A stretch of DNA of 34,453 bases from a virus. Below are positions 5,101 through 34,029 of this stretch, piece after piece. Location: positions 192,001 through 226,453 of IMG/VR virus record IMGVR_UViG_3300017991_000049; one strand, written 5' to 3'. Both the position numbers and the translations under genes were made by a program. Every line of letters begins with the position of its first letter. Positions within the stretch are counted from its first letter, which is position 1. The notes beneath the pieces were generated by a model that saw only the letters and a list, made by a program, of their open reading frames with translations, was not told the DNA's origin and did no database searches.

Positions 5101-5110
5101 TGATCGTTCC

Positions 5111-5812: not shown

Positions 5813-7340
5813 GTCTCGTCCTCATTCCTGGTTGCCAGACCTCGCCGTTAGCGAGCATCTGTGTCCATCCGCGTTTGTGGTATGCCCGCCGCCGATTCAT
5901 GGTGCGGTTCTGGAACTTACTGTCCCAGATGTCGTTCAGATCGATCAGGATGCCAGCTTCCTTACCCGTCTTCGGGTCAACGCGGCATACACGTCCCGGG
6001 ATCTGTACATTGAAGGTATCGCTGTCACCGCCGTCGCCGCGGATCAGCACGTTCAACGAGTCGAAGCTGACGCCCGTGGACCACACGCCGGTGGCTATCA
6101 CGCACATCAGTTCGCGGCGCTCGAATTGCTGTCCGAGCATCACACGCCGCTCTGGCGTCATCAGCTCTTCCGGCGTCAGCAATCCCTGGCGCACATAGCG
6201 CGCGTGCTTGACGCTATCCACAGCGCCTTCAGAGTAGCACAGTGACGCCTCGGGCATTAGCTGCCGCAGATTCAGCGCATGGTCGACTGTGTCCACCAGG
6301 ATCAACACTTGCTGCTGATCCTGTAAGAACGAGCGCGCCGCCTCGACGATCACCTGGTTGCGCCACTGGTTGCGCCAGATGCCATTGCGCTTCTGTGCAA
6401 CCAGCTGCTGCAGGTTCTCGATCGGGTTGATTCCGCCACAGTCGACATCGAGCCACTGGACGTAGACGTGCGACACCAGCCCGCACTCCTCTGCTTGCTG
6501 CTGCGTCATCTGGAAGATACGTGGACCGAAGATGCCCTCCATACGATGGTGGGCGTTGTCCAGACGCATATCCGGCGTGGCAGTGAAGCAGTAGTTACGC
6601 GAGCGCCAGTATTGGCCGAGACGCTCAGCGAGTCTGTCGGTCATCAGCTCGTGAGCCTCATCGGCCAACAAGATGTCGGCGTCGAAGTCCGAGTGGTGCA
6701 GGCTGTCCGCCGTATACACGGTGACGCGCCGATTCTTGTCCTTCTTACCGCCGCCGACCATACCTACGCTGGGAACCCAACGCGTCAGCAGATTCTTGAT
6801 ACGCGTGACCACGTCCTTACGCTTCGTGACGATATCGATCTTCGCGTGTGGATACATGCACGCTACCATTGCCATCACATGCGTCTTACCGAAGGCCGGG
6901 GGCGCGTCGATGAGGCCGCAGTCGTGCATGTCGATCTGCGCGAGGCATTGATCCTGCATCGGTCGTAGCTCAAAGCGCTCGAAGATGCGGTCCCAGTTGG
7001 CCGTGTAGACCTTTTCGGGCTTAGGTTCGTCGTTGTCGACGAAGACCACCTGATAGCCCATTCCAACAAGCAGATCCCGTATTCTGGGATAGAAACCCTT
7101 CTGACAGACGAAACGGCCTTTCGTGTCGTACTGGAAGAGCCTACGCTGCTCGTGCGTGATGTTGTGGCGCCCGCCCGAGAATCGGTCATAGGAGCCAGCA
7201 CCACCGTACTGAAACTTGTTGTGCGTGTAGAATAGCGGCTTTTCGAGGGTGCCGTAGTCGCCGGCTGGCAGCGGCCGAGTGCCGTCTGCGGATACCTCTA
7301 TGAAGGGGCCACCCTTCTTCACGATAGCCTGTTTACCCAT
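5799..7340 (-). CDS. SF2 DEAH-box helicase (UvsW/ResIII-like)
   Basis: Walker A DAPPAFGKTHVMAMVA, DEAH box LLADEAHELMTD, TAT-like FTATPD, and C-terminal helicase motifs. ATG at 7340. Confidence 0.8.
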   Translation of the reverse strand: MGKQAIVKKGGPFIEVSADGTRPLPAGDYGTLEKPLFYTHNKFQYGGAGSYDRFSGGRHNITHEQRRLFQYDTKGRFVCQKGFYPRIRDLLVGMGYQVVFVDNDEPKPEKVYTANWDRIFERFELRPMQDQCLAQIDMHDCGLIDAPPAFGKTHVMAMVACMYPHAKIDIVTKRKDVVTRIKNLLTRWVPSVGMVGGGKKDKNRRVTVYTADSLHHSDFDADILLADEAHELMTDRLAERLGQYWRSRNYCFTATPDMRLDNAHHRMEGIFGPRIFQMTQQQAEECGLVSHVYVQWLDVDCGGINPIENLQQLVAQKRNGIWRNQWRNQVIVEAARSFLQDQQQVLILVDTVDHALNLRQLMPEASLCYSEGAVDSVKHARYVRQGLLTPEELMTPERRVMLGQQFERRELMCVIATGVWSTGVSFDSLNVLIRGDGGDSDTFNVQIPGRVCRVDPKTGKEAGILIDLNDIWDSKFQNRTMNRRRAYHKRGWTQMLANGEVWQPGMRTRRAGF

Positions 7341-7360
7341 TTTTACCCGTAGTGCTGGTA

Positions 7361-7389
7361 TTGACAGCGGACGTACGGGGAGATAGGAT
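7361..7389 (+). promoter_or_regulatory. sigma70-like promoter TTGACA-N17-TAGGAT (plus strand)
   Basis: Perfect -35 TTGACA at 7361-7366, 17-nt spacer, -10 TAGGAT at 7384-7389. Lies in an otherwise minus-strand intergenic region. Confidence 0.5.
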
Positions 7390-7395
7390 CAGACA

Positions 7396-7475
7396 ATTGA
7401 ACCGCCTGACCGACCATATCCCCGTGTGGTCGCGAATCACTTGGAGCCCCGTTCCCGCGGGGCTCCTTTTTTGTT
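7396..7475 (+). ncRNA. candidate small RNA (~80 nt), cis-antisense to the 5' leader of the SF2 helicase operon
   Basis: Predicted from the plus-strand promoter (TSS ~7396) and the plus-strand intrinsic terminator ending ~7474. No coding potential consistent with the genome. Confidence 0.35.
7443..7474 (+). terminator. Rho-independent terminator (plus strand)
   Basis: GGAGCCCCG-ttcccg-CGGGGCTCC: 9-bp perfect GC-rich stem with a 6-nt loop, followed by TTTTTTGTTTG. The opposite strand has no U tract after the hairpin, so it is strand-specific. Confidence 0.65.
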
Positions 7476-7561
7476 TGTATGCCGGCGAGCGCCGGTCTTT
7501 CGACAACAAGAGCCGCATGACGCACACGCGTCACACGGCCGCAGCGCTGTCCAGTTTAGGC

Positions 7562-7590
7562 ATCCTAGCTCTCCACAAGATGGCTGTCAA
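7562..7590 (-). promoter_or_regulatory. sigma70-like promoter TTGACA-N17-TAGGAT (minus strand) driving the helicase-to-polymerase operon
   Basis: On the minus strand: TTGACA (plus 7590-7585), 17-nt spacer, TAGGAT (plus 7567-7562). Hexamers are identical to the plus-strand promoter 200 bp away. The two promoters are convergent. Confidence 0.5.
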
Positions 7591-7668
7591 CGGCGGTCTT
7601 GGCGGTATGCACTGGTTCCTACATTTTGTACCGCGCACGGCTGGAATACACCATATATGCGGGTCAAA

Positions 7669-8703
7669 TCAGATCATGTTTGTTGCGATCTGGTGCAGCT
7701 CGTACGCTGCCTTCTCCGTCTGGTGATGGAAGAAGTCCGTCGGACGGAATAGCGGGCACTGCTGCTCAGGTGTCGCAGCGGATTCACGATACAGCTCGCT
7801 CAGCCACGTGTGGCGGAGGAACGCGATAAACCGCTGCGAGCCCCGCAAATCAGCCATGACTGGATCGCCCTCGGGCGCGTTCGGATCGCCTAGGCCAAGC
7901 TTGCGGCCCCATGTCCTCCAGCAGAAATCCCACGGGGCCATGCCCACCAGGTCGCTGCCCTCGACAGGATGCGGCGCGCCAAGCTCATAGCGATAGCGCA
8001 CCTTCTGCTCGGCTGCTCTGTTCTTCCAGCAGTTCAGCACGACCTTGCAGCGTTTGTGGTGCCGCCACGGTTCGCGTGTGCCGTACACGCCGGCCTGCGT
8101 TCGTGGGTTCAAGCCCAGCCACGCTTCCAGCTTGCCGAGACGATCTGGTGCGCACTGGTCTATGTACCAGCGCGGGTCCAGTATGTACGACAGCAGTCCT
8201 GCCACCGACAGTTTGTTGAGTGACTGGATGAACGATAGCGGACGCCACGCAGGATGGCCACGCAGCAGCTGCAAGACATCCACCTCAACTTCTTCGCCGT
8301 GGAGCACACTCTTCGACAGTGCGACTGCCAGGGCATAGGAGCGATAGTCGGACTCGACGACTTCGTGGAAACCACCCAAGCTGGGCGCTCGTGTGAAATC
8401 CCGCATAGCCAACAACATAGCTTCGGGGTTACGGCGATGCTTTTCAATACGCCCGACCAATGGCGTGCATACCTGCACGCTTTGCAGCTTGTCTTTCTGT
8501 TTGAGGTCGTACAACTGCGTGATCAATCTGGCGTTAGCGCACGTGCCTACTAACTGCACGCTATCCGCGCGCGTGAAGGCAGCGCTCTCGAGAAACGCTT
8601 CTGGAGACTCGCCAGAGCATCGCGTGGCGTAGTCTCCGTCGGCATACCAGATCTTTCCGCAGTGCGTATGCAGTTTCATTGTCAATGTGTCGATCGCTCT
8701 CAT
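7669..8703 (-). CDS. hypothetical protein, translationally coupled to sbcC
   Basis: 344-aa ORF. Its ATG at 8703 overlaps the SbcC stop (ATGA). No recognisable motifs. Confidence 0.5.
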   Translation of the reverse strand: MRAIDTLTMKLHTHCGKIWYADGDYATRCSGESPEAFLESAAFTRADSVQLVGTCANARLITQLYDLKQKDKLQSVQVCTPLVGRIEKHRRNPEAMLLAMRDFTRAPSLGGFHEVVESDYRSYALAVALSKSVLHGEEVEVDVLQLLRGHPAWRPLSFIQSLNKLSVAGLLSYILDPRWYIDQCAPDRLGKLEAWLGLNPRTQAGVYGTREPWRHHKRCKVVLNCWKNRAAEQKVRYRYELGAPHPVEGSDLVGMAPWDFCWRTWGRKLGLGDPNAPEGDPVMADLRGSQRFIAFLRHTWLSELYRESAATPEQQCPLFRPTDFFHHQTEKAAYELHQIATNMI

Positions 8704-10835
8704 GCAGCTGGCAGTTCGATTGTGTTGTCAAAATGGTGCGATATCCGCGGTTCGTGTGTAACGAACAGCACCTGCAGCCCGCGCTCATGCGACAGGTCAC
8801 GCAGGCGCTCCAGCGCACGCGGCAAGCTGTCGAGGTTGTGCTCGTCCAGGCCTGCTGTGGGCTCGTCCATAATCAGTACACCAACCTGACCCGCGAAGGT
8901 CGAATTGACGGTGATCCGAAATGCCATCGCAAGTACGATGCGCTCGCCGATCGATAGTCGTCGGTCGGGCTGCACCCGCACGCCGTCAAGGAACCTGGCT
9001 GTGAAACCTAGGCTCTCGTCCATCTCCACGCGGAAAGGCGCTTCGAACATGGAGAGCGCTTCGTTCACCTGTTCTAGCATCATTTCCACGTAGGTGTAGG
9101 ACACCATCCGCGGCGCTTCGTTGCGATGAAACACGCTACGCACGTCGGTCAGGTGCTGCACTACCTCACGGGTCTTCTGTCCTTGAGCCAACGTCTTGCG
9201 AACGTTCTCAATCTGCTCTTGGACAGCAACGCGCTTTGCGTGTGCAAGCGCACGCTCGCGTGTAAACTGCTCCAGTTGCCGTTGCTTGGCCAGTATATCG
9301 GCGTTGGCTGCTTGCGCCTCGTCATGCTGCGCCTTGGTGTGCCACGGCTGTAACGCGTTGTGGGCGTCCTGGGCCTGCTGCAGCGCCTCAGCGAGCTGCT
9401 TACACTCGCCTTCCAGTGAGGACAGCTGCAGGGCCTTACTGGTCTTCTCAGCTTGAACCTGCTGCAAAGCTTCCTGGAAATGCGAACGCTCGTTCAGCGT
9501 CTTTTGAACTTCCTCTTCGGAGGTCTCGGGCGGGCTACACGCTTCGATCGCCAGACGTCGTCCTTCCAGCTGACGCTGGTCAGACGCCTTGTGCTTCATC
9601 TGCACGATGTATGCAGAGTCAGCCCTGTCATACACGTCCCACGTGTCCCTCCGCAGCCGTAGCGGCGGCATCTGCGCCTGTATCGCCGCCAGCTCGTCCT
9701 CCAACTCGGCCTTGCGCTGGGCGCGCTCGTTCGCGCCGGGCATCTTCTGGCCGCATGTAGGACAGGTATCCGCCTGGCCCATGTCCAGCAGATTGATACG
9801 AATATTACCACACGTATCTTCGAGGTACTTCAGCTGCTGCGCCTCCTCGTCGCTCAGGCGTGGCTCTGGTGGCTGCACCGGCGCGACTGTGTTCTCCCAC
9901 GTAGCTTTGAACGTAGCTTCGTCACGCTCAAGTGCAGCCCGCGTGGCTGCAGCAGCATGGTGGGCTTTCCACTGATCGCGTGCCTCCTCGGCGTCTGCAC
10001 AGTCCGGCGCAATCGCGGCTAGCCCAGCTTCAAGGTCGGCTATTGCGGCGTCCAAGTCACGTAGCGGTTCAGCCGCCGCTTTGGCTGCAGCCTCTTTGGC
10101 AGTGTACCGCCCCTGCAGCTCTTCGACGCGCGCCATCGCCTGGCGTTCGTCGTTGTACTGCTGGATCAACGTCTGGTTGGCATGCAGCTCAGTCTCCGGA
10201 TGCTCTGGCAGCTCCAGCGCAGCAATGTTGGCGTCCGCACCGGCGATAGCCTCGTCGTGCGTAGCCGCTTGATCATTCAGCTCGTCCTCCGTCAGCAGCG
10301 ACGTCGGAATCTCGATGGCGCTGACGAACTTACCCAGCTGCTCGTACACGCGCTCGGCGTGCGCCACGCCGAACAGTGCCGCCAAGGAAGCGGCCCGCTC
10401 TGCCGGCGGTTGGTCAAACATCTCGTCGATCTTGCGCTGGCGCACAAAGATGTAGTCGGCGATCTGCTTCTTGGTGGCGCCCAGTCTGCCCCACAGTTCG
10501 GAATTGATCTCGCCTACCGACGTCCACCGCGCATCGTCGATGGTCAGCAGATTGGTAGTACCCTGCAAAGCACGACGGACATGCATCCGCGCGCCGTAGT
10601 GTATCAACCAAGCTTCGACGAAGGCTTCTGCGTTACCTGGCGTACCCTGACGGATATCGTCGGCCTTCTTGCGCTCACCGCCGGCGTCGCCGATCAGTGC
10701 AAGCTGTATGGCGCGCAAGATGTTGGTCTTACCAGCGCCGTTCGGGCCAACGAGCATGTTGAGCCCAGGAGTCAGCTCGAGAGTTAGATCCTCGTGCTGG
10801 CAGAAATTCGCTAGGTGGAGTCGTTCTATGATCAT
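8700..10835 (-). CDS. sbcC: SbcC/Rad50-like SMC-family ATPase
   Basis: N-terminal Walker A MLVGPNGAGKTNIL. Long coiled-coil with zinc-hook CPTCGQ. C-terminal signature LSIGERIVLAMAF, Walker B VLIMDEPTAGLDE, H-loop LFVTHE. Confidence 0.85.
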   Translation of the reverse strand: MIIERLHLANFCQHEDLTLELTPGLNMLVGPNGAGKTNILRAIQLALIGDAGGERKKADDIRQGTPGNAEAFVEAWLIHYGARMHVRRALQGTTNLLTIDDARWTSVGEINSELWGRLGATKKQIADYIFVRQRKIDEMFDQPPAERAASLAALFGVAHAERVYEQLGKFVSAIEIPTSLLTEDELNDQAATHDEAIAGADANIAALELPEHPETELHANQTLIQQYNDERQAMARVEELQGRYTAKEAAAKAAAEPLRDLDAAIADLEAGLAAIAPDCADAEEARDQWKAHHAAAATRAALERDEATFKATWENTVAPVQPPEPRLSDEEAQQLKYLEDTCGNIRINLLDMGQADTCPTCGQKMPGANERAQRKAELEDELAAIQAQMPPLRLRRDTWDVYDRADSAYIVQMKHKASDQRQLEGRRLAIEACSPPETSEEEVQKTLNERSHFQEALQQVQAEKTSKALQLSSLEGECKQLAEALQQAQDAHNALQPWHTKAQHDEAQAANADILAKQRQLEQFTRERALAHAKRVAVQEQIENVRKTLAQGQKTREVVQHLTDVRSVFHRNEAPRMVSYTYVEMMLEQVNEALSMFEAPFRVEMDESLGFTARFLDGVRVQPDRRLSIGERIVLAMAFRITVNSTFAGQVGVLIMDEPTAGLDEHNLDSLPRALERLRDLSHERGLQVLFVTHEPRISHHFDNTIELPAA

Positions 10836-11591
10836 TTACTTTCCATTGCGCTGGCGTGCGCGGGTTGTGTCTACTTTCCTGCTGGCACGCGTTTCGTCAT
10901 GGTCAAGTTCGAATATGTCGAGGGCGCCGCGGATCTCGGACCAGATCTTCTGCAGCTGCCCGTGGGAGCCACAGCCGGCGATTTGGTCCTCGAACAGCGC
11001 TACATCGTCTTCCAGCTTCTTGAGCTTCTTGCCGACGGGGTCTTCGCGGATGAGCGCCGTCAGTTGGCGCTTGCAGTGATCCCGCATTATGTTTGTCGCA
11101 GTGCCGGGATAGCGGTCGAAGGTGCCCTCGTCCTCGTCCTCGTCCTCGTTGCTGTGGTAGCGCCGATAGTTGTTGCGGCGATTGACATGGCTTTGCTGCA
11201 TGTCGGCCGATGGCAGGTCGGCGCGCTTACGCCCCTGCATCTTCTCGACTACGCCACCTTCCAATTCGCGGATCGCTGTATCGAGCTTGTCGCGCTCTTC
11301 ACGCAGGTCTTCCAGATCGACCATCATGTTTTCGACGCCAAAGTGCTCCTCGATGAGCCTCTGGGCCTCTACTACCAAGTCGCGTTTCCAAGTCGGCTTT
11401 TCGGCCTGAATCTGGTCGCGCAATTCCTGGGCACGGCTATCCAGCCGGTCCCGAAAGTGTTGCTTCTCGCTTACTGTCAGTCCCATAAAGTCGGTCTTTG
11501 TATATTCGAAGTAATTCTGTTTGGATGTCACGTGTTCCTGCCAAGCTGACGGCGTCTTCGCAGACGGCTGTAGGCTCAGCGTAGAACTCAC
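10836..11591 (-). CDS. hypothetical acidic coiled-coil protein inserted between sbcD and sbcC
   Basis: 251-aa ORF with GTG start. Contains a DEDEDEDE run and is predicted helical. Overlaps the sbcD 3' end by 155 nt unless it starts at the internal ATG at 11486 (50-nt overlap) or at 11327. Confidence 0.45.
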   Translation of the reverse strand: MSSTLSLQPSAKTPSAWQEHVTSKQNYFEYTKTDFMGLTVSEKQHFRDRLDSRAQELRDQIQAEKPTWKRDLVVEAQRLIEEHFGVENMMVDLEDLREERDKLDTAIRELEGGVVEKMQGRKRADLPSADMQQSHVNRRNNYRRYHSNEDEDEDEGTFDRYPGTATNIMRDHCKRQLTALIREDPVGKKLKKLEDDVALFEDQIAGCGSHGQLQKIWSEIRGALDIFELDHDETRASRKVDTTRARQRNGK

Positions 11592-12576
11592 GGATGCAGC
11601 CGGCTAGGCCGTCGTTCAGCACTACCTGAACGCGCCGCGCCGTATCGACTGCAACCTGCGCACTCTCCACAGGTACCGCCTTGAGGAACAGGTGCGCATC
11701 GCCTGTGACACGCGCCTCTATCCGCTCTCTGGCCTCCGGAACATCTTCCCTGTACCAGACACGGATTATGTTCGCAGACACGGACGCCGGAACGCCCACC
11801 TTCGGTATCCTCGCAGGATGCTGCCGCCAGCTGTCAATGAAAGCGTCCAGGTCTTCCTGGTCATTGATTCTGGCTTCGTAGTAGCCGCGTGTATGCAGCT
11901 GCACAGCCTCGGCCGTCAGATCGTCGTTCAGTATGAAAACGTTCTTTGTATGCGGCTCGCCGATATTCTGCATGCAGATCGATCCAGGCGAGATGATGCG
12001 CTGTTGTCCGCGCGTCTCGTCGATCGTCACATGGAAATCGCCGGTGAGGATGCAACGTGGAGACTTGGCCCAATGGAACCATGCGTCTCCGCGATCTTCG
12101 CCCATGAAGTCCATCCACACCTGGTGTGTGGCTAGGATATCGACGCCTTCCGGAACTGCCTCCAGCGCGGCGCGTACTTCATTGGGTGACTTGTAGTCCA
12201 GTCCGTAGATCCGGAGTCCAGTGCCTGGTATTTCCACCAGCTGCTCGTTGATATGCAGCGGATGTAGATGTAAGGCATGCAACAACGGCGGTGTTGACCG
12301 CTCGTGCTGGCCCTGCACGTACAGTACCTTGCGACCCTGCTGCTGGAACGTATCCAACGCCGAGCGCATCGTCTGCAGCGCATCCGATTGCTGTAGCTTC
12401 TGCTCGAATAGGTCGCCGAGCAGGATCACGTACGGAACATCATACGTATCCGCTATCTCGCAGATCTGTTTGATGCTCCACGCCGTATCCCCGCATAGGG
12501 TGTCCCGGCGGCTCCAAACACGGTCGTGTTTGCGCACATGCCAGTCTCCAGTTGCGAGCGCAATCGGCTTAGCCAT
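11437..12576 (-). CDS. sbcD: SbcD/Mre11-like nuclease (calcineurin-like metallophosphoesterase)
   Basis: N-terminus MAKPIALATGDWHV, ILLGDLFEQ, and further phosphoesterase motifs. AGGAGA SD before the ATG at 12576. Confidence 0.85.
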   Translation of the reverse strand: MAKPIALATGDWHVRKHDRVWSRRDTLCGDTAWSIKQICEIADTYDVPYVILLGDLFEQKLQQSDALQTMRSALDTFQQQGRKVLYVQGQHERSTPPLLHALHLHPLHINEQLVEIPGTGLRIYGLDYKSPNEVRAALEAVPEGVDILATHQVWMDFMGEDRGDAWFHWAKSPRCILTGDFHVTIDETRGQQRIISPGSICMQNIGEPHTKNVFILNDDLTAEAVQLHTRGYYEARINDQEDLDAFIDSWRQHPARIPKVGVPASVSANIIRVWYREDVPEARERIEARVTGDAHLFLKAVPVESAQVAVDTARRVQVVLNDGLAGCIREFYAEPTAVCEDAVSLAGTRDIQTELLRIYKDRLYGTDSKREATLSGPAG

Positions 12577-12958
12577 AATTTTGATCTCCTGAACAAAGTT
12601 CGGGGTCGAGTGTCATCATGAAATGGTAGAAGGCCTCCGGGGGCAGCACCGGGTCATCGAAGTCGATGACATCCGGATCGCGCACCCGAAACAGATTTCC
12701 GTGCTGGTCCATGACCATTACGCTAGCAGTGCCTTCAACCAGGAGCGTCTTCATGCTGAGCAGGAAGGCGTCACCTACGGGCACCAACGCACGTGCCTTA
12801 GCCATGATAACATCGACAGGTAGCGATTCCCAGAAGCCCGAACCGTACAGTACGCGTTCGTATTGTGGCGTCTGGAGCATGTCCATCAGGAGCAGCATCG
12901 CCCGGCAATCCACTGCCAAGGCGTCCTCGTACATTTGCTTGAAATGCTCTTGTCCCAT
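12569..12958 (-). CDS. hypothetical protein
   Basis: 129-aa ORF, ATG start, overlaps the sbcD start by 8 nt. Confidence 0.45.
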   Translation of the reverse strand: MGQEHFKQMYEDALAVDCRAMLLLMDMLQTPQYERVLYGSGFWESLPVDVIMAKARALVPVGDAFLLSMKTLLVEGTASVMVMDQHGNLFRVRDPDVIDFDDPVLPPEAFYHFMMTLDPELCSGDQNYG

Positions 12959-12960
12959 GG

Positions 12961-12989
12961 TTGCCTCGTTTGGGCGAAAAGGGTATACT
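12961..12989 (+). promoter_or_regulatory. sigma70-like promoter for csrA (TTGCCT-N17-TATACT)
   Basis: -35 TTGCCT at 12961-12966, 17-nt spacer, -10 TATACT at 12984-12989. Followed by AAGGAGG and the csrA ATG at 13019. Confidence 0.55.
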
Positions 12990-12997
12990 TAAAGTAT
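12985..12997. promoter_or_regulatory. inverted repeat ATACTT-a-AAGTAT overlapping the csrA -10/TSS (possible operator)
   Basis: 6-bp perfect arms separated by 1 nt, overlapping the -10 hexamer. Confidence 0.35.
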
Positions 12998-13018
12998 CAC
13001 CATCAAGGAAGGAGACTG

Positions 13019-13198
13019 ATGATGCTGGTTCTTTCTCGCAAGACCGGTCAAAGAATACTGATCGGTGACGACATCACTGTTACGCTAGTACGCGTCGACG
13101 GTGACACGGTGCGTATCGGTATCGAGGCGCCTGAGACTGTGCGGATTCTCCGCGAAGAGCTCAAAAAGAAGCAACCTCGACAACCTGTAGCGCATTAG
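13019..13198 (+). CDS. csrA: CsrA/RsmA-family carbon storage regulator (RNA-binding translational regulator)
   Basis: 60-aa product MMLVLSRKTGQRILIGDDITVTLVRVDGDTVRIGIEAPETVRILREEL. It aligns with canonical CsrA ([48 protein letters not shown]) across almost its full length. Strong SD AAGGAGG. Lone plus-strand gene among minus-strand genes. Confidence 0.85.
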   Translation: MMLVLSRKTGQRILIGDDITVTLVRVDGDTVRIGIEAPETVRILREELKKKQPRQPVAH

Positions 13199-13487
13199 CG
13201 ATATCCGCAAAGAGTCGCTTCTTAGCGCATACTGCCAGCTTATGGGCCTGGGACACGCTCACGCAACGCACTGATTCGCGCTGCCCTGCTGCCTGTCCAC
13301 GGCCCGAGGCTGGCCAGTAGTCCGCCAGGTGTTTATCGCCGTACTTGAAACGCCAATGCTGGTCGTTGTCGCTCAGCGTGACAGTGATCTGCTCGAAGGC
13401 AAGCTCGCTCTGGAGCATTTCCAGTTCAGCTGTTGCTGACTGGAGCCGCTGTTTGCGGATCTGCTTCTTCTTGCTCATCTGCTGCAC
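13161..13487 (-). CDS. hypothetical small protein (doubtful)
   Basis: 108-aa ORF. Overlaps the hldE 3' end by 62 nt and is convergent with csrA, overlapping it by 38 nt. Lys-rich N-terminus. An internal ATG at 13418 would remove the overlap. Confidence 0.3.
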   Translation of the reverse strand: MQQMSKKKQIRKQRLQSATAELEMLQSELAFEQITVTLSDNDQHWRFKYGDKHLADYWPASGRGQAAGQRESVRCVSVSQAHKLAVCAKKRLFADIANALQVVEVASF

Positions 13488-14919
13488 AGGCTTTCGCGCG
13501 GATGTCGGTCGCGTGCGTATCGAACTCGAGCGTCGTCGTCATGATACGGCCGCCGACCTCCTCCATCGTCAGCGCTTCTGGAATCCGATCGGTCTTGCCG
13601 GCGTGCTCGGGGCCCTTGAACAGGACCGTCGGTACCAGATTGTGGATAAGTGACTTGGGTGTGTCTTCGTCGAACTTGATGATCGCATCGACGCACGGTA
13701 GCGCTGCCAAACTCGCGGCACGCGTGGCGTAGTCGTTGATCGGCTTGCTCTTGATGCGGGCGGCCGACTCGTCCGAATTCAACATGACGAGTAGGAAATC
13801 GCACTCTTTGCGCGCCTGCTCCAGCATGGAGACATGCCCAGGATGCATCAGATCGAAAACACCGTTGGCTACGCCGAAGTCGCCGCCGCTGACCATCATG
13901 GATGCGCGCAGCAGCATAGCAAAAGGCAGCTCTATCTTCTTGAGCTGATTGCCAGATACAATGGTCAGCCGCCTGTGTATCTGGTGCAGTGACACCGCGG
14001 ATGCGCCAGGGCGCTCTACCTGTATCGCTGCGGCCGTTGCTGCAAAGTGCAACATGGGCATCAAAGACATATCGGCAGCGACGCCATAGGTGAACGCTGC
14101 AGCAACAGTGTCGCCAGCACCGCACGAGTCGACCGCTAGTGCTGGCACAGCTGGCATCTCGGACGGCGTCTCGTTCGGGCGCACTATGAGCATACCGGCA
14201 GCGCCACGCGTCACGATGCAATGCACAGCGTGCAGTTCCTTGCAGACCGCCATAGCCGCCGAGCGTACGTCAGCAATCCGCGGGTCGGCGACTGCCGCAA
14301 GCACCTCATGCTCATTGGGCGTAATGATATGCGCACCACGATAGTGAAGCATATGCTTCGGCGTCGGGTCTACGACCACCGGTACTTTGTGTGCGCGCGC
14401 ATACTCGAAGATGACCTGGAGCGTACGCTCCGTGCAAATACCTTTGTCGTAGTCGGACACAAGGATCGCAAGTGGTTTCGCGTCGTCGACACACTTCATG
14501 AACATGTCGACCACCTTGTCCTCGACATTGGCCTTCGGGCGTGCGTCTATGTCGAAGCGAGCTACCAGACTGTCAGCTGCGTACACGCGGTGTTTGCAGG
14601 GCGTTTGGTAGTTCTTATCCGTGGCTACATACCGCGTCAGCAGCTCCGGTAGTTCCATGTTCAAGAAGTTCCGGCCGGCGGTGTCATCGCCTACGACGCT
14701 TACGAACGCCGTGGGCATCGCCATATGTACGAGATTGGCCATCGCGTTGGCGGCACCGCCCAAGCCAAGGAAGGGCGTACCAGGTGGCACGTCTATGACG
14801 GGAACTGCAGCGGTTTGGTCAAGCTGCTTCACCGTTCCCATGTAGTAGTGGTCCATAAGCACAGGTCCGACTACGACCACGCGGTCGCCTTCATCCTGTG
14901 CTGGGTGATTCGTCGTCAA
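13426..14919 (-). CDS. hldE: Bifunctional HldE/RfaE-like D-beta-D-heptose-7-phosphate kinase / heptose-1-phosphate adenylyltransferase
   Basis: N-terminal pfkB/ribokinase-like domain: VVVVGPVLMDHYY...GLGGAANAMANL and DSCGAGDTV. C-terminal cytidylyltransferase domain with HxGH motif: ANGVFDLMHPGHVSML...LNSDES...KFDEDTP...LFKG. Collinear with E. coli HldE over both domains. TTG start at 14919 preceded by GGAGAG. Confidence 0.85.
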   Translation of the reverse strand: MTTNHPAQDEGDRVVVVGPVLMDHYYMGTVKQLDQTAAVPVIDVPPGTPFLGLGGAANAMANLVHMAMPTAFVSVVGDDTAGRNFLNMELPELLTRYVATDKNYQTPCKHRVYAADSLVARFDIDARPKANVEDKVVDMFMKCVDDAKPLAILVSDYDKGICTERTLQVIFEYARAHKVPVVVDPTPKHMLHYRGAHIITPNEHEVLAAVADPRIADVRSAAMAVCKELHAVHCIVTRGAAGMLIVRPNETPSEMPAVPALAVDSCGAGDTVAAAFTYGVAADMSLMPMLHFAATAAAIQVERPGASAVSLHQIHRRLTIVSGNQLKKIELPFAMLLRASMMVSGGDFGVANGVFDLMHPGHVSMLEQARKECDFLLVMLNSDESAARIKSKPINDYATRAASLAALPCVDAIIKFDEDTPKSLIHNLVPTVLFKGPEHAGKTDRIPEALTMEEVGGRIMTTTLEFDTHATDIRAKACAADEQEEADPQTAAPVSNS

Positions 14920-15106
14920 TACTGCTCTCCGCTGTGACTGAGTCTGGATCTAGTGATACACGTCGCAGCCCACTGACTGCCACGGGCTTTGATGTGCATG
15001 TAGGGCAAATACGGTTACCAGCATGTTGCGACGCAAACGTCGTGCCACAGCGCAAACAGCGCCGCGGCTTAGCTGCTAATCTGTCATCCGCCCTGGGTTT
15101 TGCCAT
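14891..15106 (-). CDS. small zinc-ribbon protein (C-x2-C...C-x2-C)
   Basis: ATG at 15106 with a GGAG SD. RCLRCGTTFASQHAGNRICPTC. Overlaps the hldE start by 29 nt. Confidence 0.35.
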   Translation of the reverse strand: MAKPRADDRLAAKPRRCLRCGTTFASQHAGNRICPTCTSKPVAVSGLRRVSLDPDSVTAESSIDDESPSTG

Positions 15107-15118
15107 TTGTGGCTCCAA

Positions 15119-15790
15119 TCAGACCGTGCTCGGCACCAACCTGACGACCTTGTACGTGCCATCAGGATACGGAAACACGAAGTCTTCGTCCAGACGTTTG
15201 CACGGCGGCAGTGATGGATTTGGCACAGTGGGGTGCACACCCTCCTGAAGGATAAGAAAAGCGTCGATGTAGGCGCCGCCGTCCGCTGGTGCCGCGTTTA
15301 CGATCGCAATCGCGGCTACTGCTCCGTCGGCAAATGTGTGGTACCAGCCTCCAGCAATATCGCCGGGCGCCGCTACGTTACTCTCGAACCCGAGGCCTCG
15401 TCCAAGGATATCCGTGTACGTGGCCATCTCGGCTTGCGGCACGACCAACCGGGCCGTGTCGTAGCCTATGCGTTCGTAGAGCACACCATCTGCTAACAGA
15501 GGCACAAGCTTCTTGAGGCTTGCGCGAGCCAGATTGCGATCGAAGAACGCCTCCATGCACGCCACCTCGCTACCTTTGGGCATCTCTGCCGTAGCGGGCG
15601 GGGCTGTGGCCGACAACGGTGTCGTCAGCTCTTCGTCAAAACTAGTGATGAACGTCTCGAAGTCTTCCTGACTCGTATGATCGATCACTCGTAACAGCGC
15701 CAGCTGGTCGTCAGCTGACAGCTTATGCTTGTCGGTGAGCGCGAGTATGCGCTCAGCAGGAGTTAGATTTGACACGTTTGAAGTATCCAA
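15119..15790 (-). CDS. hypothetical protein
   Basis: 223-aa ORF. Helical N-terminus, Pro/Ala/Thr linker, ~140-aa C-terminal domain. No recognisable motifs. Confidence 0.5.
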   Translation of the reverse strand: MDTSNVSNLTPAERILALTDKHKLSADDQLALLRVIDHTSQEDFETFITSFDEELTTPLSATAPPATAEMPKGSEVACMEAFFDRNLARASLKKLVPLLADGVLYERIGYDTARLVVPQAEMATYTDILGRGLGFESNVAAPGDIAGGWYHTFADGAVAAIAIVNAAPADGGAYIDAFLILQEGVHPTVPNPSLPPCKRLDEDFVFPYPDGTYKVVRLVPSTV

Positions 15791-16583
15791 ATGGGAGTCT
15801 GAATCGCTTGCACCGGATGCTATTCAGGAACGTGGCCATGACAGCCGGGTCGCTCCGAAGCCATCCGGGCGGATATTTGAAAATACCTCCGATCAGCTTT
15901 GCGATCGTGAAGTCGCGCGGACGCTTGACGACCCGGAACGAGTCGCCGAGGTCTGCGTTCCAACCTGCTGGCATTACTGCCACGCAGCTGTGCATTCGCA
16001 GCCACCGGCCGCAGCTACCGTCCTTTGCCGTGGCCTTATAGACCAGCGGAGACAACGTGTACCAGTAGAAGCCGCCAAGGGCGTCCTTCATGTACTTGTC
16101 GCGGAACTGCTTCGGAAACCAGCGCTCCGTCATGAACACTTCGTCAAGGCTGGTGGTCAGCCCACCATCCGCGTCGAAGTAAATGTCCCGATGCTCCGTG
16201 CAGGTGTGCCGGTAGGTCACCAGCGTCGCCTTCCTGCGGCGTACCAGGTCACTCACCTTAGTGTAGATACTGCTGACACGCCTGGAGAAGCACCAAGGAC
16301 AGATGATTAGATTACACGTGGTTGTCCACGGGTCGACGTGGACGCAGCACACCGGGCAGTTGTGCGCGAAGACGAGCTTGCTGGTGCTGATCTGCGCCCA
16401 TTCATGCCGCGCAAGCTCTGCGCAGCGCATACGCCAGATCCCTCGCGCCTCCTGCAGCTTCGGTATGAGCCCATAGGGATAGGGCTTAACCTCGCCTACG
16501 ATCGGCGCGACGGTTGAAAGATATTCACACAGCATCCGCGGGGATTCTGATGGAATACTCAGCTTGGCATCAATCGTCCTCAT
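15753..16583 (-). CDS. hypothetical Cys-rich protein (putative zinc-binding)
   Basis: 276-aa ORF with HNCPVCCVHVD...ICPWCF and additional Cys/His. Function not assignable. Confidence 0.5.
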   Translation of the reverse strand: MRTIDAKLSIPSESPRMLCEYLSTVAPIVGEVKPYPYGLIPKLQEARGIWRMRCAELARHEWAQISTSKLVFAHNCPVCCVHVDPWTTTCNLIICPWCFSRRVSSIYTKVSDLVRRRKATLVTYRHTCTEHRDIYFDADGGLTTSLDEVFMTERWFPKQFRDKYMKDALGGFYWYTLSPLVYKATAKDGSCGRWLRMHSCVAVMPAGWNADLGDSFRVVKRPRDFTIAKLIGGIFKYPPGWLRSDPAVMATFLNSIRCKRFRLPFGYFKRVKSNSC

Positions 16584-16914
16584 CCACGTCGTCCGTGACC
16601 TCTGGTGCGCCCGTTAAGAACGGTCGGATTACGATATCGTCGAGTTCGTCTACCGCGTGGCGCACCTCCGCAAGTGAACCGCCTGCGAAAACTACTTCAC
16701 GCGCATCGTGATCCCAGGCCAGATAAACCTCTTCGCCTGGGCAGTTGAGATCTTCGCAAAGCCTATCGATTTGCTCGAGAGACATCACCGTGATCTCTGC
16801 CATTTGCACGACCCCGTCTAGCAGGATCGGCCCCGTCTCCTCCAACGCCCGCTGGAGCATCCTAAGTCCGGTTAGGATGTGTGCTAGGCCTTGGTCATCC
16901 ACCTCCAGTAACAT
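16570..16914 (-). CDS. hypothetical highly acidic protein
   Basis: ATG at 16914 preceded by GGAGGA. Ends ...VTDDVDEDD. The ORF track extends to 16947. Confidence 0.45.
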   Translation of the reverse strand: MLLEVDDQGLAHILTGLRMLQRALEETGPILLDGVVQMAEITVMSLEQIDRLCEDLNCPGEEVYLAWDHDAREVVFAGGSLAEVRHAVDELDDIVIRPFLTGAPEVTDDVDEDD

Positions 16915-17107
16915 TGGTATCCTCCAATGGACGCGCCCTGTCAACACCCTTCAGGGACAGCCTGAAGAAGCGTAAGAGTTCGCTGTCCTCCAAATGTCCC
17001 TTCCAGTACGCGTCCTTTATCCAGTTGCGTAGCTGTTCAGCGGGAATGTCGTCCAGCCAGTTAACAAATTGTTCCATCGACGCCGCGCGTGCGGGATCTA
17101 TTGGCAT
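16895..17107 (-). CDS. hypothetical small protein
   Basis: 70-aa ORF. ATG at 17107 follows TAAGGAG and lies immediately downstream of an intrinsic terminator. Confidence 0.45.
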   Translation of the reverse strand: MPIDPARAASMEQFVNWLDDIPAEQLRNWIKDAYWKGHLEDSELLRFFRLSLKGVDRARPLEDTNVTGGG

Positions 17108-17122
17108 GTGTGGCTCCTTAGC

Positions 17123-17154
17123 AAAAAACCCCGGGCGCCCGAAGGCGCCCAGGG
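17123..17154 (-). terminator. Rho-independent terminator (minus strand)
   Basis: On the minus strand: CCCUGGGCGCC-UUCG-GGCGCCCGGGG (11-bp stem with one G-U pair and a UUCG tetraloop) followed by UUUUUU. Lies just after the stop of the 17168-17872 gene. Confidence 0.75.
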
Positions 17155-17167
17155 CCCATGAGTTCCG

Positions 17168-17872
17168 CTACGCCTCGATCAGCGCGGCCGTACGTCTCTC
17201 GACGGCTTCGTCGATCATCCGCTTAGCGCTTACCAACGCCGCAGCAGCCTCGATGGGCGCCGTCTGTTGCAACGACGTTGCCGTACCGAGCATGCGCTCG
17301 CCGTGCGCGATGATCTCGCCGGTCGTCAAACCGGACAGGTCGACCACGTTGACATCACTGCTGGGTGCGACGATGCGATCGTCTACCGTCGGCGACGCGC
17401 TCGCGGGAGTCGCTTCGGGCGCGTCGTCGCGGATCGGCTTGATCCGTCGTGGCACGGGCTGGCGGGCGGCCCAGCTCTTGGACCTGTGCGACTCTACCAG
17501 CTCCGGGTCGTGGCCTGCGGCGATGCAGGCGTCCATCGCCTCGGTGTGCGTACCGCGATGCAGATGCTTCAGCCACCACTGGCGCAACCAGCGCGAAGCG
17601 GCCGTCAGGCGCGGGTCGTCGAGACCGTTGGCCTTGCCGTTCTTCTTCGCGTTGCGCGTCTTTGTCAGTTTGCTACGCGCTGCGCGCAGCTTGCCGGCTT
17701 TGTTCAGCAGCCAACGCACAGCGTGTGACCGCTTCAACAGATACTCCTCGTCCTCGTTCTCGAAGCCGTGCTTCTGCAGGTAGGCGACCGCTGTCGGATG
17801 CTCGTCGTCGGGGTGAGCCAACCAGAACTTCTCCAACGCGATCGTCAAAGGCTGCTTTTCCTTACGTGCCAT
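17168..17872 (-). CDS. hypothetical protein
   Basis: ATG at 17872 with a GGAGGTG SD. Basic central region. Last gene of the pilin-like operon before the terminator. The ORF-track start at 17923 is less likely. Confidence 0.5.
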   Translation of the reverse strand: MARKEKQPLTIALEKFWLAHPDDEHPTAVAYLQKHGFENEDEEYLLKRSHAVRWLLNKAGKLRAARSKLTKTRNAKKNGKANGLDDPRLTAASRWLRQWWLKHLHRGTHTEAMDACIAAGHDPELVESHRSKSWAARQPVPRRIKPIRDDAPEATPASASPTVDDRIVAPSSDVNVVDLSGLTTGEIIAHGERMLGTATSLQQTAPIEAAAALVSAKRMIDEAVERRTAALIEA

Positions 17873-17927
17873 GAGACACCTCCATAGGAAAAAGGTTACG
17901 GCGCTGCGCATAGGCAGCACCACGTGT

Positions 17928-18224
17928 TCACCAGTGATACTGGCGAAGGAAATCGCAGATCGGGCCGTCGGCGTCGATCCGCACGAAATCTATCTCGTGG
18001 CTGTGCGCCACAGACAGTATGTGTCCCACCGAGGGACTGAAGCCAAAGTCGTTAAGGGTCTCTAGGATGCCGTCGCCGAAATCGTCCGGTACACCAACCC
18101 AGAAACCCTCAGGGTATTCCTCTACACCTAGATCTGCACACTGGCCTAGCGCATTCGCGTCTTCGGCAGTGATATGACAGGTGTTGATCGTCCAGAGTCG
18201 ACGAATATCTAGCGGTTCGGTCAT
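17928..18224 (-). CDS. hypothetical acidic small protein
   Basis: 98-aa ORF overlapping the pilin-like gene stop (ATGA-type coupling). Confidence 0.45.
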   Translation of the reverse strand: MTEPLDIRRLWTINTCHITAEDANALGQCADLGVEEYPEGFWVGVPDDFGDGILETLNDFGFSPSVGHILSVAHSHEIDFVRIDADGPICDFLRQYHW

Positions 18225-18646
18225 TGCATTAGCTCCCGTACCGCATCTTCGTCGCGCGAATCGACGTCGATCTCAGTCACTGTGCCGTTCGCAATGTCGT
18301 TCGACATCACGGACAAGAGGCGCCCCCTGGGAGCTACATTGCCTTCATACTGTATAATTCCCTGAATTTGCGCTGCCTTGAGGCGTACTTTGCGCACCTG
18401 CGCTACAAGCGAAAGACAATCAGCGTCAGCCGCCTTCACATAGAAATGGTGCCGACTATCGATGACACCTTCCCACTGAGCCTTGGCTGCGACATACTGT
18501 AAGCGCGTTACCGGACCGAACACTTCCTCGGTACGCGTAGTGTGTCCGACAGAGAACTTGCCGATCGCGCCGACGAGCAGCGAAGCCAATATCCCCACGA
18601 TCGCGATGACTACTAGTAGCTCTACAACGGTAAACGCTCGACGCAT
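18221..18646 (-). CDS. type IV pilin / pseudopilin-like protein (prepilin-type N-terminal domain)
   Basis: N-terminus MRRA-FTVVELLVVIAIVGILASLLVG matches the class III signal/N-methylation consensus ([KR]-G-FTLIELLVVIAIIGILAA) including Glu+5, but has Ala instead of Gly at -1. Strong SD AAGGAGG. Confidence 0.6.
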   Translation of the reverse strand: MRRAFTVVELLVVIAIVGILASLLVGAIGKFSVGHTTRTEEVFGPVTRLQYVAAKAQWEGVIDSRHHFYVKAADADCLSLVAQVRKVRLKAAQIQGIIQYEGNVAPRGRLLSVMSNDIANGTVTEIDVDSRDEDAVRELMQ

Positions 18647-18773
18647 TTGGAGCCTCCTTTTTGCTCATGAGATCAAGATTGAAACTACCCAGCCTGCCTA
18701 TCCTCGCTGAAGCCCGTGGAATCTCGAGACAGCGAGGTGTGGTTGAGTGTACTTGTAACCTGTTGTCCGACAA

Positions 18774-18852
18774 GGACTTAGGTCAACACCCCTCGAATGG
18801 CGGTTAGCTCTTAGAAAATGTATATCTAAGTCCTCATTACATTCGGACTTAG
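18774..18852. promoter_or_regulatory. intergenic repeat cluster: GGACTTAG / CTAAGTCC 8-mers including a hairpin-forming inverted pair
   Basis: GGACTTAG at 18774-18781 and 18845-18852. CTAAGTCC at 18826-18833. The latter two form a CTAAGTCC-N11-GGACTTAG inverted repeat. A TTGACC -35-like hexamer sits at 18786-18781 on the minus strand. Confidence 0.4.
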
Positions 18853-18937
18853 AAACCCGCCTCGGCCGGATATTCTATCCGTCCTTCTCCGGGGTGGTAG
18901 TTTTGAAGACTATTTGGGGGTATCGGAGAAATAGGTA

Positions 18938-19474
18938 TCAGTGTCCTGCCTTAGCACTAGCAATTACCAGACAGACAGCTCCAGCTGTCGCCATGATACC
19001 CGTCACCCAAAAGCCCATGCACCAGGCTACCTGGCTGGGGTAAACGACAATGTTTGGCGGTAGCGTGACCTCCACGCCCTCGCTGTCATCGTCCAGGAGC
19101 GTCTCTCGTAGTTTCATCAGTTGGTTGGACACCGTCAAGGGGTCCGCGTCGGTTGGGAACGCGCGCAACTCGTCCAGCGCTGACTTCACATTGTTGTGCC
19201 AGAAGGTCACATCACAATCAGGGGTATACCACAATACGTGTGAGCGCCCTGTCGTGCAGCCGCGCCGGTTCATTCCTTCGAGCGCCGCCGTCAGCTCTGT
19301 CTTGGCCATCTCGATCGAGTTGGCATCCGCGGCGCGCTTCAGTCGCCCGCCAACATCTTGATCGAATCCGATCTCCATGACAAAGCGTGTGACTACCATG
19401 GCTAGCAGTGGTACGCACAGTACGCACCCACCAATGAACCATCCACCAGCTCCGCTACTCCGTCTGTAACTCAT
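18938..19474 (-). CDS. hypothetical membrane protein (N- and C-terminal TM helices)
   Basis: Hydrophobic stretches WFIGGCVLCVPLLAMVV and FWVTGIMATAGAVCLVIA. ATG at 19474. The ORF-track TTG is at 19516. Confidence 0.45.
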   Translation of the reverse strand: MSYRRSSGAGGWFIGGCVLCVPLLAMVVTRFVMEIGFDQDVGGRLKRAADANSIEMAKTELTAALEGMNRRGCTTGRSHVLWYTPDCDVTFWHNNVKSALDELRAFPTDADPLTVSNQLMKLRETLLDDDSEGVEVTLPPNIVVYPSQVAWCMGFWVTGIMATAGAVCLVIASAKAGH

Positions 19475-19853
19475 CGTGTATCCATCCTTCCTGTACGGAC
19501 CAGATGATCCGTTCAATGTTCAAATCGTCGGCCAGCAGGACCGGCGACGGACTGTGTTCTTTGGGACGAAGGCCGCGCGCACGACAACGTGCGATCGCCT
19601 TCGGTTCTAGGTTCTGAAACTTGTATAGGTAGTCCATCGCGTCTGCGTGGTGTCGAAACACGTGCCAGCCGGATAGATACCATGTCTTAGATGTGCCGTC
19701 GCGTACGCGCTTCTTCGCGGCGACCATCCACTTGTTCACAGGCATGACCTTTGAACCGGCCAGGCCATGGAACAACGTCTTGATATTGCCATCGACGATG
19801 TCGACTATCTTGTAGACGACCTCGCCTGGTGCGGCGCTAACCCGATTGGTCAT
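19455..19853 (-). CDS. hypothetical protein
   Basis: 132-aa ORF with ATG start. Overlaps the ndk stop by 17 nt. Confidence 0.45.
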   Translation of the reverse strand: MTNRVSAAPGEVVYKIVDIVDGNIKTLFHGLAGSKVMPVNKWMVAAKKRVRDGTSKTWYLSGWHVFRHHADAMDYLYKFQNLEPKAIARCRARGLRPKEHSPSPVLLADDLNIERIIWSVQEGWIHDELQTE

Positions 19854-20265
19854 AGAACCCGGGGAAGAAGATACGTATCTCGCGCTCCGCCTCTGGCGCG
19901 CTGTCGCTGCCGTGGATGACGTTCCGGCGATAGTTCTCGCCGTAGTCTCCGCGGATGGTGCCGGGTAGCTTCTGCGGCTTGGGCGCTAGCGGCGCACCTA
20001 TCAGCTCGCGCACGACCGCAATGGCATTCTCATGCCGGTGGTCAACGACCATCACCCAGCACAGTCCGCTGACCATGAAGTCGATCAGTCCGTCGATCCA
20101 CGTCTCATGGGCGAACTTCTGGTAGAGATCATTGGCCTGCCGTCGCGTCATGAGGATCAGCTCGCCCTTAATGAAGAAGCAGCCGCGGTCGCGTAGCTTC
20201 GTCATAAGGATCCCGTCGATATTCCTCTCGACCGCGTCCGGCTTGATGATTACGAGGGTTTCCAT
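19837..20265 (-). CDS. ndk: nucleoside diphosphate kinase
   Basis: METLVIIKPDAVERN...GTIRGDYG...NVIHGSDSAPEAEREIRIFF, including the active-site His context NxxHGSD. AGGAGAA SD. Confidence 0.85.
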   Translation of the reverse strand: METLVIIKPDAVERNIDGILMTKLRDRGCFFIKGELILMTRRQANDLYQKFAHETWIDGLIDFMVSGLCWVMVVDHRHENAIAVVRELIGAPLAPKPQKLPGTIRGDYGENYRRNVIHGSDSAPEAEREIRIFFPGFYDQSG

Positions 20266-20295
20266 ATTTTGTTCTCCTGATCAAAATTGGCCGCG

Positions 20296-20544
20296 TCAGC
20301 CTTTACGGGTTCCCGCTGCTCTGCCGCGCCTGATCGGTGATTGTTTCAATCCGATGGTGCGTACGATCGCAGGGCAGAACTCTTCGTCCGCCCCGATCTG
20401 TGCGCGTGGGCGCACACATCGCCGACAAAAGAACGCACCATTGGCGAGCTTGCACGCAGGTGCGCCGCAGTTGCTGCAGACCTTATCGGCAAACGCTTCC
20501 GCAATCAGTTGTTTGGTACTGGCATCCGGTTCCAGTCCTTGCAT
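20296..20544 (-). CDS. small zinc-ribbon protein
   Basis: ATG at 20544 follows AAGGAGA and is just downstream of a terminator-like element. CSNCGAPACK...FCRRC. The longer ORF-track version (to 20718) would run through the structured element. Confidence 0.45.
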   Translation of the reverse strand: MQGLEPDASTKQLIAEAFADKVCSNCGAPACKLANGAFFCRRCVRPRAQIGADEEFCPAIVRTIGLKQSPIRRGRAAGTRKG

Positions 20545-20566
20545 TGTGGCTCTCCTTAGTTGGACG

Positions 20567-20654: not shown

Positions 20655-20764
20655 GTCCGCAGCCAGCATTAACTCCCGTCTCTGCCGGCCTTAGTTTGTA
20701 GGGAAGCGGAGCGTTCATTGCATTTGGTGGGCGTAGCGCCCCGCCTCCCTCAGGAAGTCGTCCG

Positions 20765-22689: not shown

Positions 22690-22693
22690 TATC

Positions 22694-34016: not shown

Positions 34017-34029
34017 TTTGTTCCTGTGA

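Follow-up and report, generated by a model that had tools for sequence, protein, structure and literature searches.

Why would a large phage keep a copy of the bacterial regulator CsrA, alone on its strand, inside a block of replication genes? The question is posed by the csrA gene in a 34,453-nucleotide (nt) stretch of viral DNA (positions 192,001 to 226,453 of IMG/VR virus record IMGVR_UViG_3300017991_000049), which is referred to here as the window and which belongs to a metagenomic phage contig of about 226.5 kb, ENA ERZ27256796 k141_2629452, making up about 15% of that genome. An initial annotation, drawn from the letters of the window, had presented the gene as a self-contained moron whose product could reprogram host translation or act on the phage's own leaders. 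The analysis that followed it up establishes that the gene is a genuine member of the CsrA family. Moreover, the gene probably specifies a functional, ancient and inherited phage CsrA that would serve as an early repressor binding GGA motifs, chiefly in host targets.

Identity and conservation of the phage CsrA

The plus-strand open reading frame (ORF) at 13019-13198, with the translation MMLVLSRKTGQRILIGDDITVTLVRVDGDTVRIGIEAPETVRILREELKKKQPRQPVAH, offers two in-frame ATG codons as possible starts. The second, at 13022, is the likelier one because it lies 7 nt 3' of GGAG, yields the canonical MLVLSRK N-terminus (of the ML(V/I)L type) and is the start used in the public gene calls; its product of 58 amino acids (aa), P0001, is on record in the databases, from which the exact 59-aa form starting at 13019 is absent. 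Homology to CsrA/RsmA over nearly the full length, as asserted at the outset, was borne out when the family profiles were run: Pfam PF02599 (CsrA) matches residues 2-51 (profile positions 1-50 of 53) at 82.3 bits against a cut-off of 27 (E=2.4e-23), and NCBIfam TIGR00202 lies narrowly above its cut-off (71.3 vs 70.1). The scores for the NCBIfam equivalog NF002469 (67.5 vs 73) and for NF001844 (55.7 vs 106) fall below the respective cut-offs. The protein also matches PHROG 9500, 'CsrA-like regulator' (E=3.9e-17), and its top sequence match in the PDB is RsmE 2jpp (E=2.5e-12), with RsmE, RsmA and CsrA chains at E~1e-12.

An AlphaFold2 monomer model, built from an alignment of database homologues, reached a predicted local distance difference test (pLDDT) score of 80.8, and Foldseek superposed 49 of its residues on 2mfc, 1vpz, 5z38 and 2bti with template modelling (TM) scores of 0.75-0.78 and root-mean-square deviations of 1.1-1.5 Å. 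The beta1 and beta5 strands are unformed in the monomer model, as one would expect, since these strands pair across the CsrA dimer. The protein is short, and prolines terminate its C-terminal helix. An alignment of E. coli CsrA, RsmE and B. subtilis CsrA with 15 distinct phage orthologues, which share 29-57% identity with the window protein, showed L2, G33, A36, P37 and R44 to be invariant and R6 nearly so; the RNA-contact residues of beta1 and beta5, R44 included, are conserved in the window protein. R44 is the arginine that is essential for RNA binding in the CsrA family (PMC7366521). Ratios of nonsynonymous to synonymous substitution (dN/dS) of 0.13-0.28, obtained by the Nei-Gojobori method from informative pairs with unsaturated or moderately saturated dS, indicate that csrA is under purifying selection. 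By homology, we infer that the phage CsrA is a functional RNA-binding protein.

The features of the locus to which the following sections refer are these:

12569-12958, minus strand: 129-aa gene, divergent from csrA; conserved, and the first gene of the sbcD-sbcC run
12961-12989, plus strand: candidate sigma70-like promoter, TTGCCT-N17-TATACT (promoter scan, 9/12 matches)
12985-12997, no strand assigned: 6-bp inverted repeat, ATACTT-a-AAGTAT, spanning the -10 and the predicted transcription start
13005-13015, plus strand: Shine-Dalgarno sequence AAGGAAGGAGA with two GGA motifs (read from the sequence), a candidate site of autoregulation
13022-13198, plus strand: csrA coding sequence, 58 aa and stop, with the alternative in-frame ATG at 13019
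13161-13198, no strand assigned: convergent overlap of the 3' ends of csrA and the 105-aa gene, 38 nt (gene calls)
13161-13478, minus strand: 105-aa gene flanking the csrA site; conserved, function unassigned

Age and inheritance of the locus

In the gene calls of an identical public contig, csrA is the sole plus-strand gene over about 20 kb (window ~3020-23000), an isolation that had first been put at about 10 kb. Its minus-strand neighbours encode a DNA primase, a DnaB-like helicase, a second helicase, SbcC-like and SbcD-like nuclease subunits, an HldE-like heptose kinase/adenylyltransferase, NDK and a nicotinamide adenine dinucleotide (NAD)-dependent ligase, while an exonuclease, a deoxyribonucleotidase, a deoxynucleoside monophosphate kinase and a phosphoheptose-isomerase-like protein are encoded at a greater distance. 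By this gene content the window is a replication/repair and nucleotide-metabolism module. The two genes that flank csrA, one of them (the 129-aa gene) separated from it by a spacer of 63 nt, were considered as functional partners and set aside, as neither has a Pfam or PHROG match.

The 58-aa protein itself was found on 11 contigs from several samples, and the module is carried in conserved order by IMG/VR viral contigs of 42-229 kb. A search with an SbcD profile retrieved 47 related IMG/VR loci (individual related loci are designated below by L-numbers). Among close relatives the order is HldE, 105-aa gene, csrA on the opposite strand, 129-aa gene, SbcD, 216-aa gene and SbcC. The nearest orthologue, in L001, occupies the identical place and orientation and encodes a protein that is 57% identical; in L003, L004 and L005 the homologues of the 105-aa and 129-aa genes lie 40-50 nt apart and csrA is absent, and L002 also lacks it. 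Overall, csrA stands immediately upstream of sbcD on the opposite strand in 23 of the 47 loci, including some in which SbcD is merely 26-31% identical to that of the window. In a neighbour-joining tree of SbcD the csrA-positive loci fall into three deep branches, where they are interspersed with loci that lack the gene. Pairwise distances of CsrA and SbcD are correlated (Mantel r=0.72, p=1e-4), also after the removal of near-duplicates (r=0.60). The guanine plus cytosine (GC) content at third codon positions (GC3) of csrA ranges from 0.18 to 0.67, tracking genome GC contents of 39-58%. The simplest reading of the fixed site in deep branches, of the codivergence of CsrA with SbcD and of a GC3 that matches each genome is that csrA is an old acquisition, vertically inherited with the module, repeatedly lost and dispensable.

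That reading has to be set against the possibility that csrA is a recently captured host gene, a classical moron serving host manipulation or lysogenic conversion. Recent capture would account for the presence or absence of the gene among close relatives, with an empty site of 40-50 nt, for its own promoter-like site and Shine-Dalgarno sequence, and for its base composition: csrA has a GC content of 53.1% vs 58.5% for the window, and a GC3 of 0.53 vs 0.65-0.69 in its neighbours. The low GC of the window copy is nevertheless not a sign of recent import, because it is part of a systematic offset, csrA GC3 being below sbcD GC3 in 13 of 14 loci from L010-L050 and the window (mean -0.11; Wilcoxon p=0.0009) even as it tracks each genome. 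The fixed site and orientation in 23 loci, with SbcD down to 26% identical, and the codivergence with SbcD also speak against recent capture, as do the terminator that was not found, the lack of a prophage relative in 185,579 species genomes and the lysogeny genes that were not seen in the window. We consider recent capture very improbable. Of the four properties by which the gene was judged as a moron, two were found, namely presence or absence between identical flanking genes and, by prediction, an own promoter; an own terminator and a recent, lineage-specific acquisition were not. The designation in the initial annotation thus stands as regards the promoter-like site and the empty site in relatives, and fails as regards the terminator and the age of a gene that codiverges with its module. 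As to the offset itself, a strand effect or an effect of expression class is possible.

The placement of the gene in a phage, in turn, was upheld by the replication module, by the viral relatives in IMG/VR and by a search with the SbcD profile of 185,579 GTDB species-representative genomes, which found no relative and hence none as a prophage. The latter result speaks against a common prophage and in favour of a phage that is large and virulent. Nor did lysogeny genes show up in the window, and the carrier is probably a huge, virulent phage. Nucleotide and SbcC-protein searches of 50,697 isolated phages gave no match, and the helicase gave no more than a 24% match, to Verrucomicrobia phage P8625, which indicates that the clade has no cultured relative in that set. 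With regard to the host, every named cellular homologue among the best matches of the NAD-dependent ligase LigA (27513-29618, minus strand) belongs to the Planctomycetota, at 41-43% identity (Maioricimonas, Symmachiella, Thalassoroseus and metagenome-assembled genomes of Planctomycetaceae). A pattern scan with LigA for the host returned one irrelevant match of 32%.

Expression, action and rival functions

Taken by themselves, the hexamers of the csrA promoter are not above chance, since 3 sigma70-like sites were found in 10 kb vs 3.4 expected; by position weight matrix (PWM) the site scores 13.0, fourth-equal among the sites on both strands of the window. When the 100-nt upstream regions of 16 csrA orthologues were scanned with a sigma70 PWM, the -10 of the best site ended 29-40 nt 5' of the ATG in 14 of them, with hexamers that include TTGATT/TATATT, TTGAAG/TACAAT and TTGGAC/TATAAT. 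As this position is regular across orthologue upstream sequences that cannot be aligned, a real host-type promoter is supported, and the earlier claim that csrA has its own sigma70-like promoter holds as a prediction. The strong Shine-Dalgarno sequence is likewise as had been described; an A(N)GGA is part of it in 15 of the 16 orthologues vs 8 of 34 other window genes. The loop of a weak 5-bp hairpin holds the two GGAs of the leader, but this fold is no better than that of shuffled sequence (z-score 0.18).

Other elements of the proposed transcription unit fared less well. The inverted repeat over the -10 is present as reported, but as an operator it was rejected, for the window contains 81 perfect 6-bp repeats with loops of 0-4 nt (~0.14 per 60 nt), a chance level, and L001 does not share this one. 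Beyond 13198 the terminator scan found nothing resembling a terminator on the plus strand, and csrA runs at its 3' end into the convergent 105-aa gene, an overlap that has a counterpart of 59 nt in L001; the unit is therefore not self-contained. If the minus-strand genes are co-transcribed, the resulting RNA would be antisense to the entire csrA gene, and the promoter scan found no minus-strand sigma70-like site in the surrounding 10 kb.

A scheme for the action of the phage CsrA can be proposed from these data. The gene would be transcribed alone from its host-type sigma70-like promoter and translated from the strong Shine-Dalgarno sequence, and since the promoter is host-type, unmodified host RNA polymerase would express it early. 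By homology, the product would assemble into a domain-swapped dimer and prevent the initiation of translation by binding GGA motifs in or close to ribosome-binding sites. E. coli csrA is known to be autoregulated, and the phage protein would probably also act on its own GGA-GGA leader. The favoured main targets are host messenger RNAs (mRNAs), that is, the host's own CsrA regulon. It is the timing of expression, the targets and the autoregulation that we infer here. The lean towards host targets derives from the predicted expression of the early, host-polymerase type, from the observation that phages with CsrA tend to infect hosts that bear CsrA (PMC8450108), and from the scarcity of GGA-type ribosome-binding sites in the phage, an ANGGA occurring near the start of only 8 of the 34 window genes.

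Several observations weigh against this account. None of the results distinguishes host from phage targets. The empirical p-values of the orthologue promoters (0.002-0.13 per locus, with random windows from that locus as the null) are inflated and too optimistic: the null windows are mostly coding and less rich in AT than intergenic DNA, and several pairs of orthologues are related and not independent. The -35 region (TTGCCTC) is the reverse complement of the GAGG Shine-Dalgarno sequence of the divergent 129-aa gene (start 12958), and its conservation may in part be due to this overlap. As to ancestry, P0012, a bacterial CsrA from a fliW-csrA-flagellin operon, resembles the window protein about as closely as the phage orthologues do, and CsrA being short and saturated, sequence alone is no proof that the phage proteins are monophyletic. 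Finally, the hints of a host are limited to the LigA matches and a prepilin-type motif (described below).

The scan of phage leaders for GGA motifs that the initial annotation had proposed was carried out, and as a sign of phage targets it had to be discarded: multi-GGA sites are present, the z-scores of the leader hairpins are not significant, and GGA or ANGGA at gene starts (the same 8 of 34) does not discriminate. The best of these sites precedes a 178-aa gene (start 19474, minus strand) with the multi-GGA ribosome-binding site acaGGAaGGAtGGA; the surrounding region, 19455-19500 on the minus strand, reads guacaGGAaGGAuGGAuacacgAUG and contains three GGAs and a partial match to ARGGAUGU, the CsrA consensus from SELEX (systematic evolution of ligands by exponential enrichment). 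A similar GGAAGGAAGAG stands before the 178-aa homologue of L002. The densest cluster of GGAs (16874-17133, minus strand) was examined as a sponge RNA and rejected, as it is a coding ORF of 70 aa. No transfer RNA and no Rfam family at gathering thresholds was detected within the window, Csr/Rsm sponge small RNAs (sRNAs) included, nor was a FliW domain found in the window neighbours examined, the window being ~15% of the genome.

A serious rival, possible although on balance rather unlikely in our estimation, is a role inside the phage itself, in which CsrA would act as a timer that mainly represses the early or middle mRNAs of replication and repair as infection advances and is later silenced by antisense read-through. 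The precedent is RegA of T4, a small phage protein encoded among replication genes that binds the ribosome-binding regions of many mRNAs, its own included; the analogy is functional only, as fold and family are unrelated. A timer would make sense of the fixed position of csrA inside the replication/repair module across deep divergence, although that position may merely be inherited, and of its retention in phage genomes of 39-59% GC, a range that implies different hosts. It would also fit the arrangement in which csrA is wholly antisense to an apparent HldE-to-sbcC run, with neither a terminator nor a minus-strand promoter-like site found around it. Some phage genes, such as the 178-aa gene, do have multi-GGA ribosome-binding sites, but ANGGA near the start is confined to 8 of 34 window genes, L002 has its similar site in spite of lacking csrA, and repeated loss would be unexpected for a core developmental switch.

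The remaining proposals concern the host. An anti-defence role, in which the phage CsrA represses host immunity genes such as cas operons, draws on the finding that RsmA represses three CRISPR (clustered regularly interspaced short palindromic repeats)-Cas systems in Serratia; the authors of that work suggest that phage copies exploit this (PMC8450108). Early expression of the host-polymerase type would suit such a gene; the idea is, however, a hypothesis in the source paper too (PMC8450108), and we hold it to be improbable. Comparably small is the probability that we assign to a decoy or dominant-negative protein, which would titrate FliW or Csr/Rsm sRNAs, form mixed dimers with host CsrA, or act as a FliW-blind CsrA beyond the control of the host. 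The MLVLSRK N-terminus is of the FliW-partnered type, the best named bacterial match lies in a fliW-csrA-flagellin operon, and the window protein has only 58 aa with prolines ending its C-terminal helix, whereas FliW-partnered CsrAs have extended C-termini that are bound by FliW (PMC7366521). Planctomycetes are among the phyla with CsrA control of the FliW type (PMC4682653), and LigA hints at that phylum. Nevertheless, a decoy is deduced from length and sequence only, and neither FliW nor a sponge RNA was seen in the window.

A broader version of the favoured account, which we regard as unlikely, would place in huge phages, possibly of Planctomycetota, a distinct, ancient and FliW-insensitive CsrA lineage that is inherited within their developmental programme, is expressed first by host RNA polymerase from the conserved antisense position in the sbcCD/replication module, and acts as a translational master switch. 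Such a protein would lock the host CsrA regulon (flagellin, carbon storage, perhaps defence) in a 'CsrA-high' state and/or time the early mRNAs of the phage, and antisense read-through would later switch csrA off.

Other features, known relatives and wider meaning

Apart from csrA, the window holds several features that deserve mention. The 328-nt non-coding gap at 7341-7668 contains the two best sigma70-like sites of the window, which share TTGACA-N17-TAGGAT and face each other (plus strand 7361-7389, minus strand 7590-7562), and about 55 nt after the plus-strand site there is a strong intrinsic terminator, GGAGCCCC-gttcccgc-GGGGCTCC-TTTTTTG, at about 7443-7473. This arrangement points to a ~80-nt small RNA that would run antisense to the long leader in front of the helicase, DnaB and primase genes; it has no match in Rfam. 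As a sponge the candidate (~7396-7473) was rejected, since it contains a single GGA. A 141-aa protein (18221-18646, minus strand) begins with MRRAFTVVELLVVIAIVGILASLL, a prepilin-type N-terminal methylation motif (PF07963, 22.8 bits), and is predicted to be a pilin-like or pseudopilin-like phage protein; the databases hold no homologue of it besides itself.

Two genes resemble members of the ADP-heptose pathway, the HldE-like kinase/adenylyltransferase (13426-14919, minus strand) and the phosphoheptose-isomerase-like protein (33597-34076, minus strand). In the branch formed by L024, L031 and L033 a gene of ~208-210 aa lies immediately behind csrA and on its strand, an arrangement not found in the window; the copy in L024 (5107-5733, minus strand) has a weak sulfotransferase-like Pfam match, those in L031 and L033 have none, and weak sulfotransferase-like matches also occur in more distant minus-strand ORFs of L038 and L050. 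Together, the heptose-type genes and sulfotransferase-like matches may represent a sugar-based system that modifies DNA or the cell envelope. What looks like a gap preceding the HldE-like gene (14891-15118, minus strand) codes for a small protein whose CxxC...CxxC pattern (MAKPRADDRLAAKPRRCLRCGTTFASQHAGNRICPTC...) is of the zinc-ribbon type; the public prediction does not call it. The primase homologue of L001 (17853-19907) is in two parts ~1 kb apart, one matching residues 23-79 and the other residues 79-380 of the window primase, which suggests the insertion of an intron, an intein or a homing endonuclease.

How does the window protein compare with CsrA homologues described before? With bacterial CsrA, RsmA and RsmE (PF02599; 2jpp, 1vpz, 1y00, 5z38) it shares the fold and, approximately, the length, being 40-48% identical to E. 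coli CsrA, RsmE and B. subtilis CsrA in the alignment and 47-55% identical over residues 2-51 in local HMMER and Foldseek matches to bacterial CsrA. Unlike these, it is encoded by a phage, and its gene stands in neither a flagellar nor an alaS-csrA context; its C-terminus is short and rich in proline, no sRNA or FliW antagonist was found nearby, and it scores below the equivalog cut-off of NF002469.

Phage csrA genes are already documented, and the locus is no new kind of system. Known phage homologues of CsrA/Rsm include those of the F116/RsmM type and of phi297, Burkholderia phages DC1 and Bcep22, and Vibrio phages (PHROG 9500 and 8397); a tblastn search yielded 80 phage records with a CsrA homologue, none of which reaches 60% identity to the window protein. 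F116 and Dartukuta are temperate phages (50-65 kb) in which csrA is co-directional within an early operon beside a cI-like repressor, and the F116 homologue has 123 aa vs 58 aa in the window. In contrast, csrA of the window is a lone antisense gene in an sbcCD/replication module of a huge and probably virulent phage, conserved across a deep clade. In 2020, 30 of 2517 phage genomes carried csrA, mostly Pseudomonas phages with the RsmM type (PMC7366521), and a survey of phage CsrA in GenBank and IMG/VR proposed repression of CRISPR-Cas (PMC8450108). Our literature search found no functional characterisation of any phage-borne CsrA, the roles put forward (host reprogramming, CRISPR-Cas repression) being hypothetical, and no published description of deep-clade csrA conservation in the sbcCD module of huge phages.

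Other mobile elements carry copies of CsrA as well. Examples are RsmQ, the CsrA paralogue of plasmid pQBR103, CsrT of integrative and conjugative elements (ICEs) in Legionella, and the CsrA of pMBA19a. These differ from the window protein in the type and lifestyle of the element, show no sequence closeness to it, and act in long-term carriage, as opposed to an activity that in the phage would presumably accompany infection. The copies on plasmids and ICEs are thought to interfere with or supplement the post-transcriptional control of the host (PMC7366521).

What the window locus adds to this picture is that csrA has long been retained at one and the same site, its promoter position being conserved as well. 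The 15 distinct orthologues and their csrA-less sisters form a comparative set for the targeting of host vs phage messages, and the short variants, similar to the FliW type and truncated at the C-terminus, are usable for biochemistry. Purifying selection, the retention of R44, a predicted host-type promoter, and persistence across phages whose SbcD proteins have diverged to ~26% identity and whose genomes range from 39 to 59% GC together make an evolutionary argument that csrA matters to the phage.

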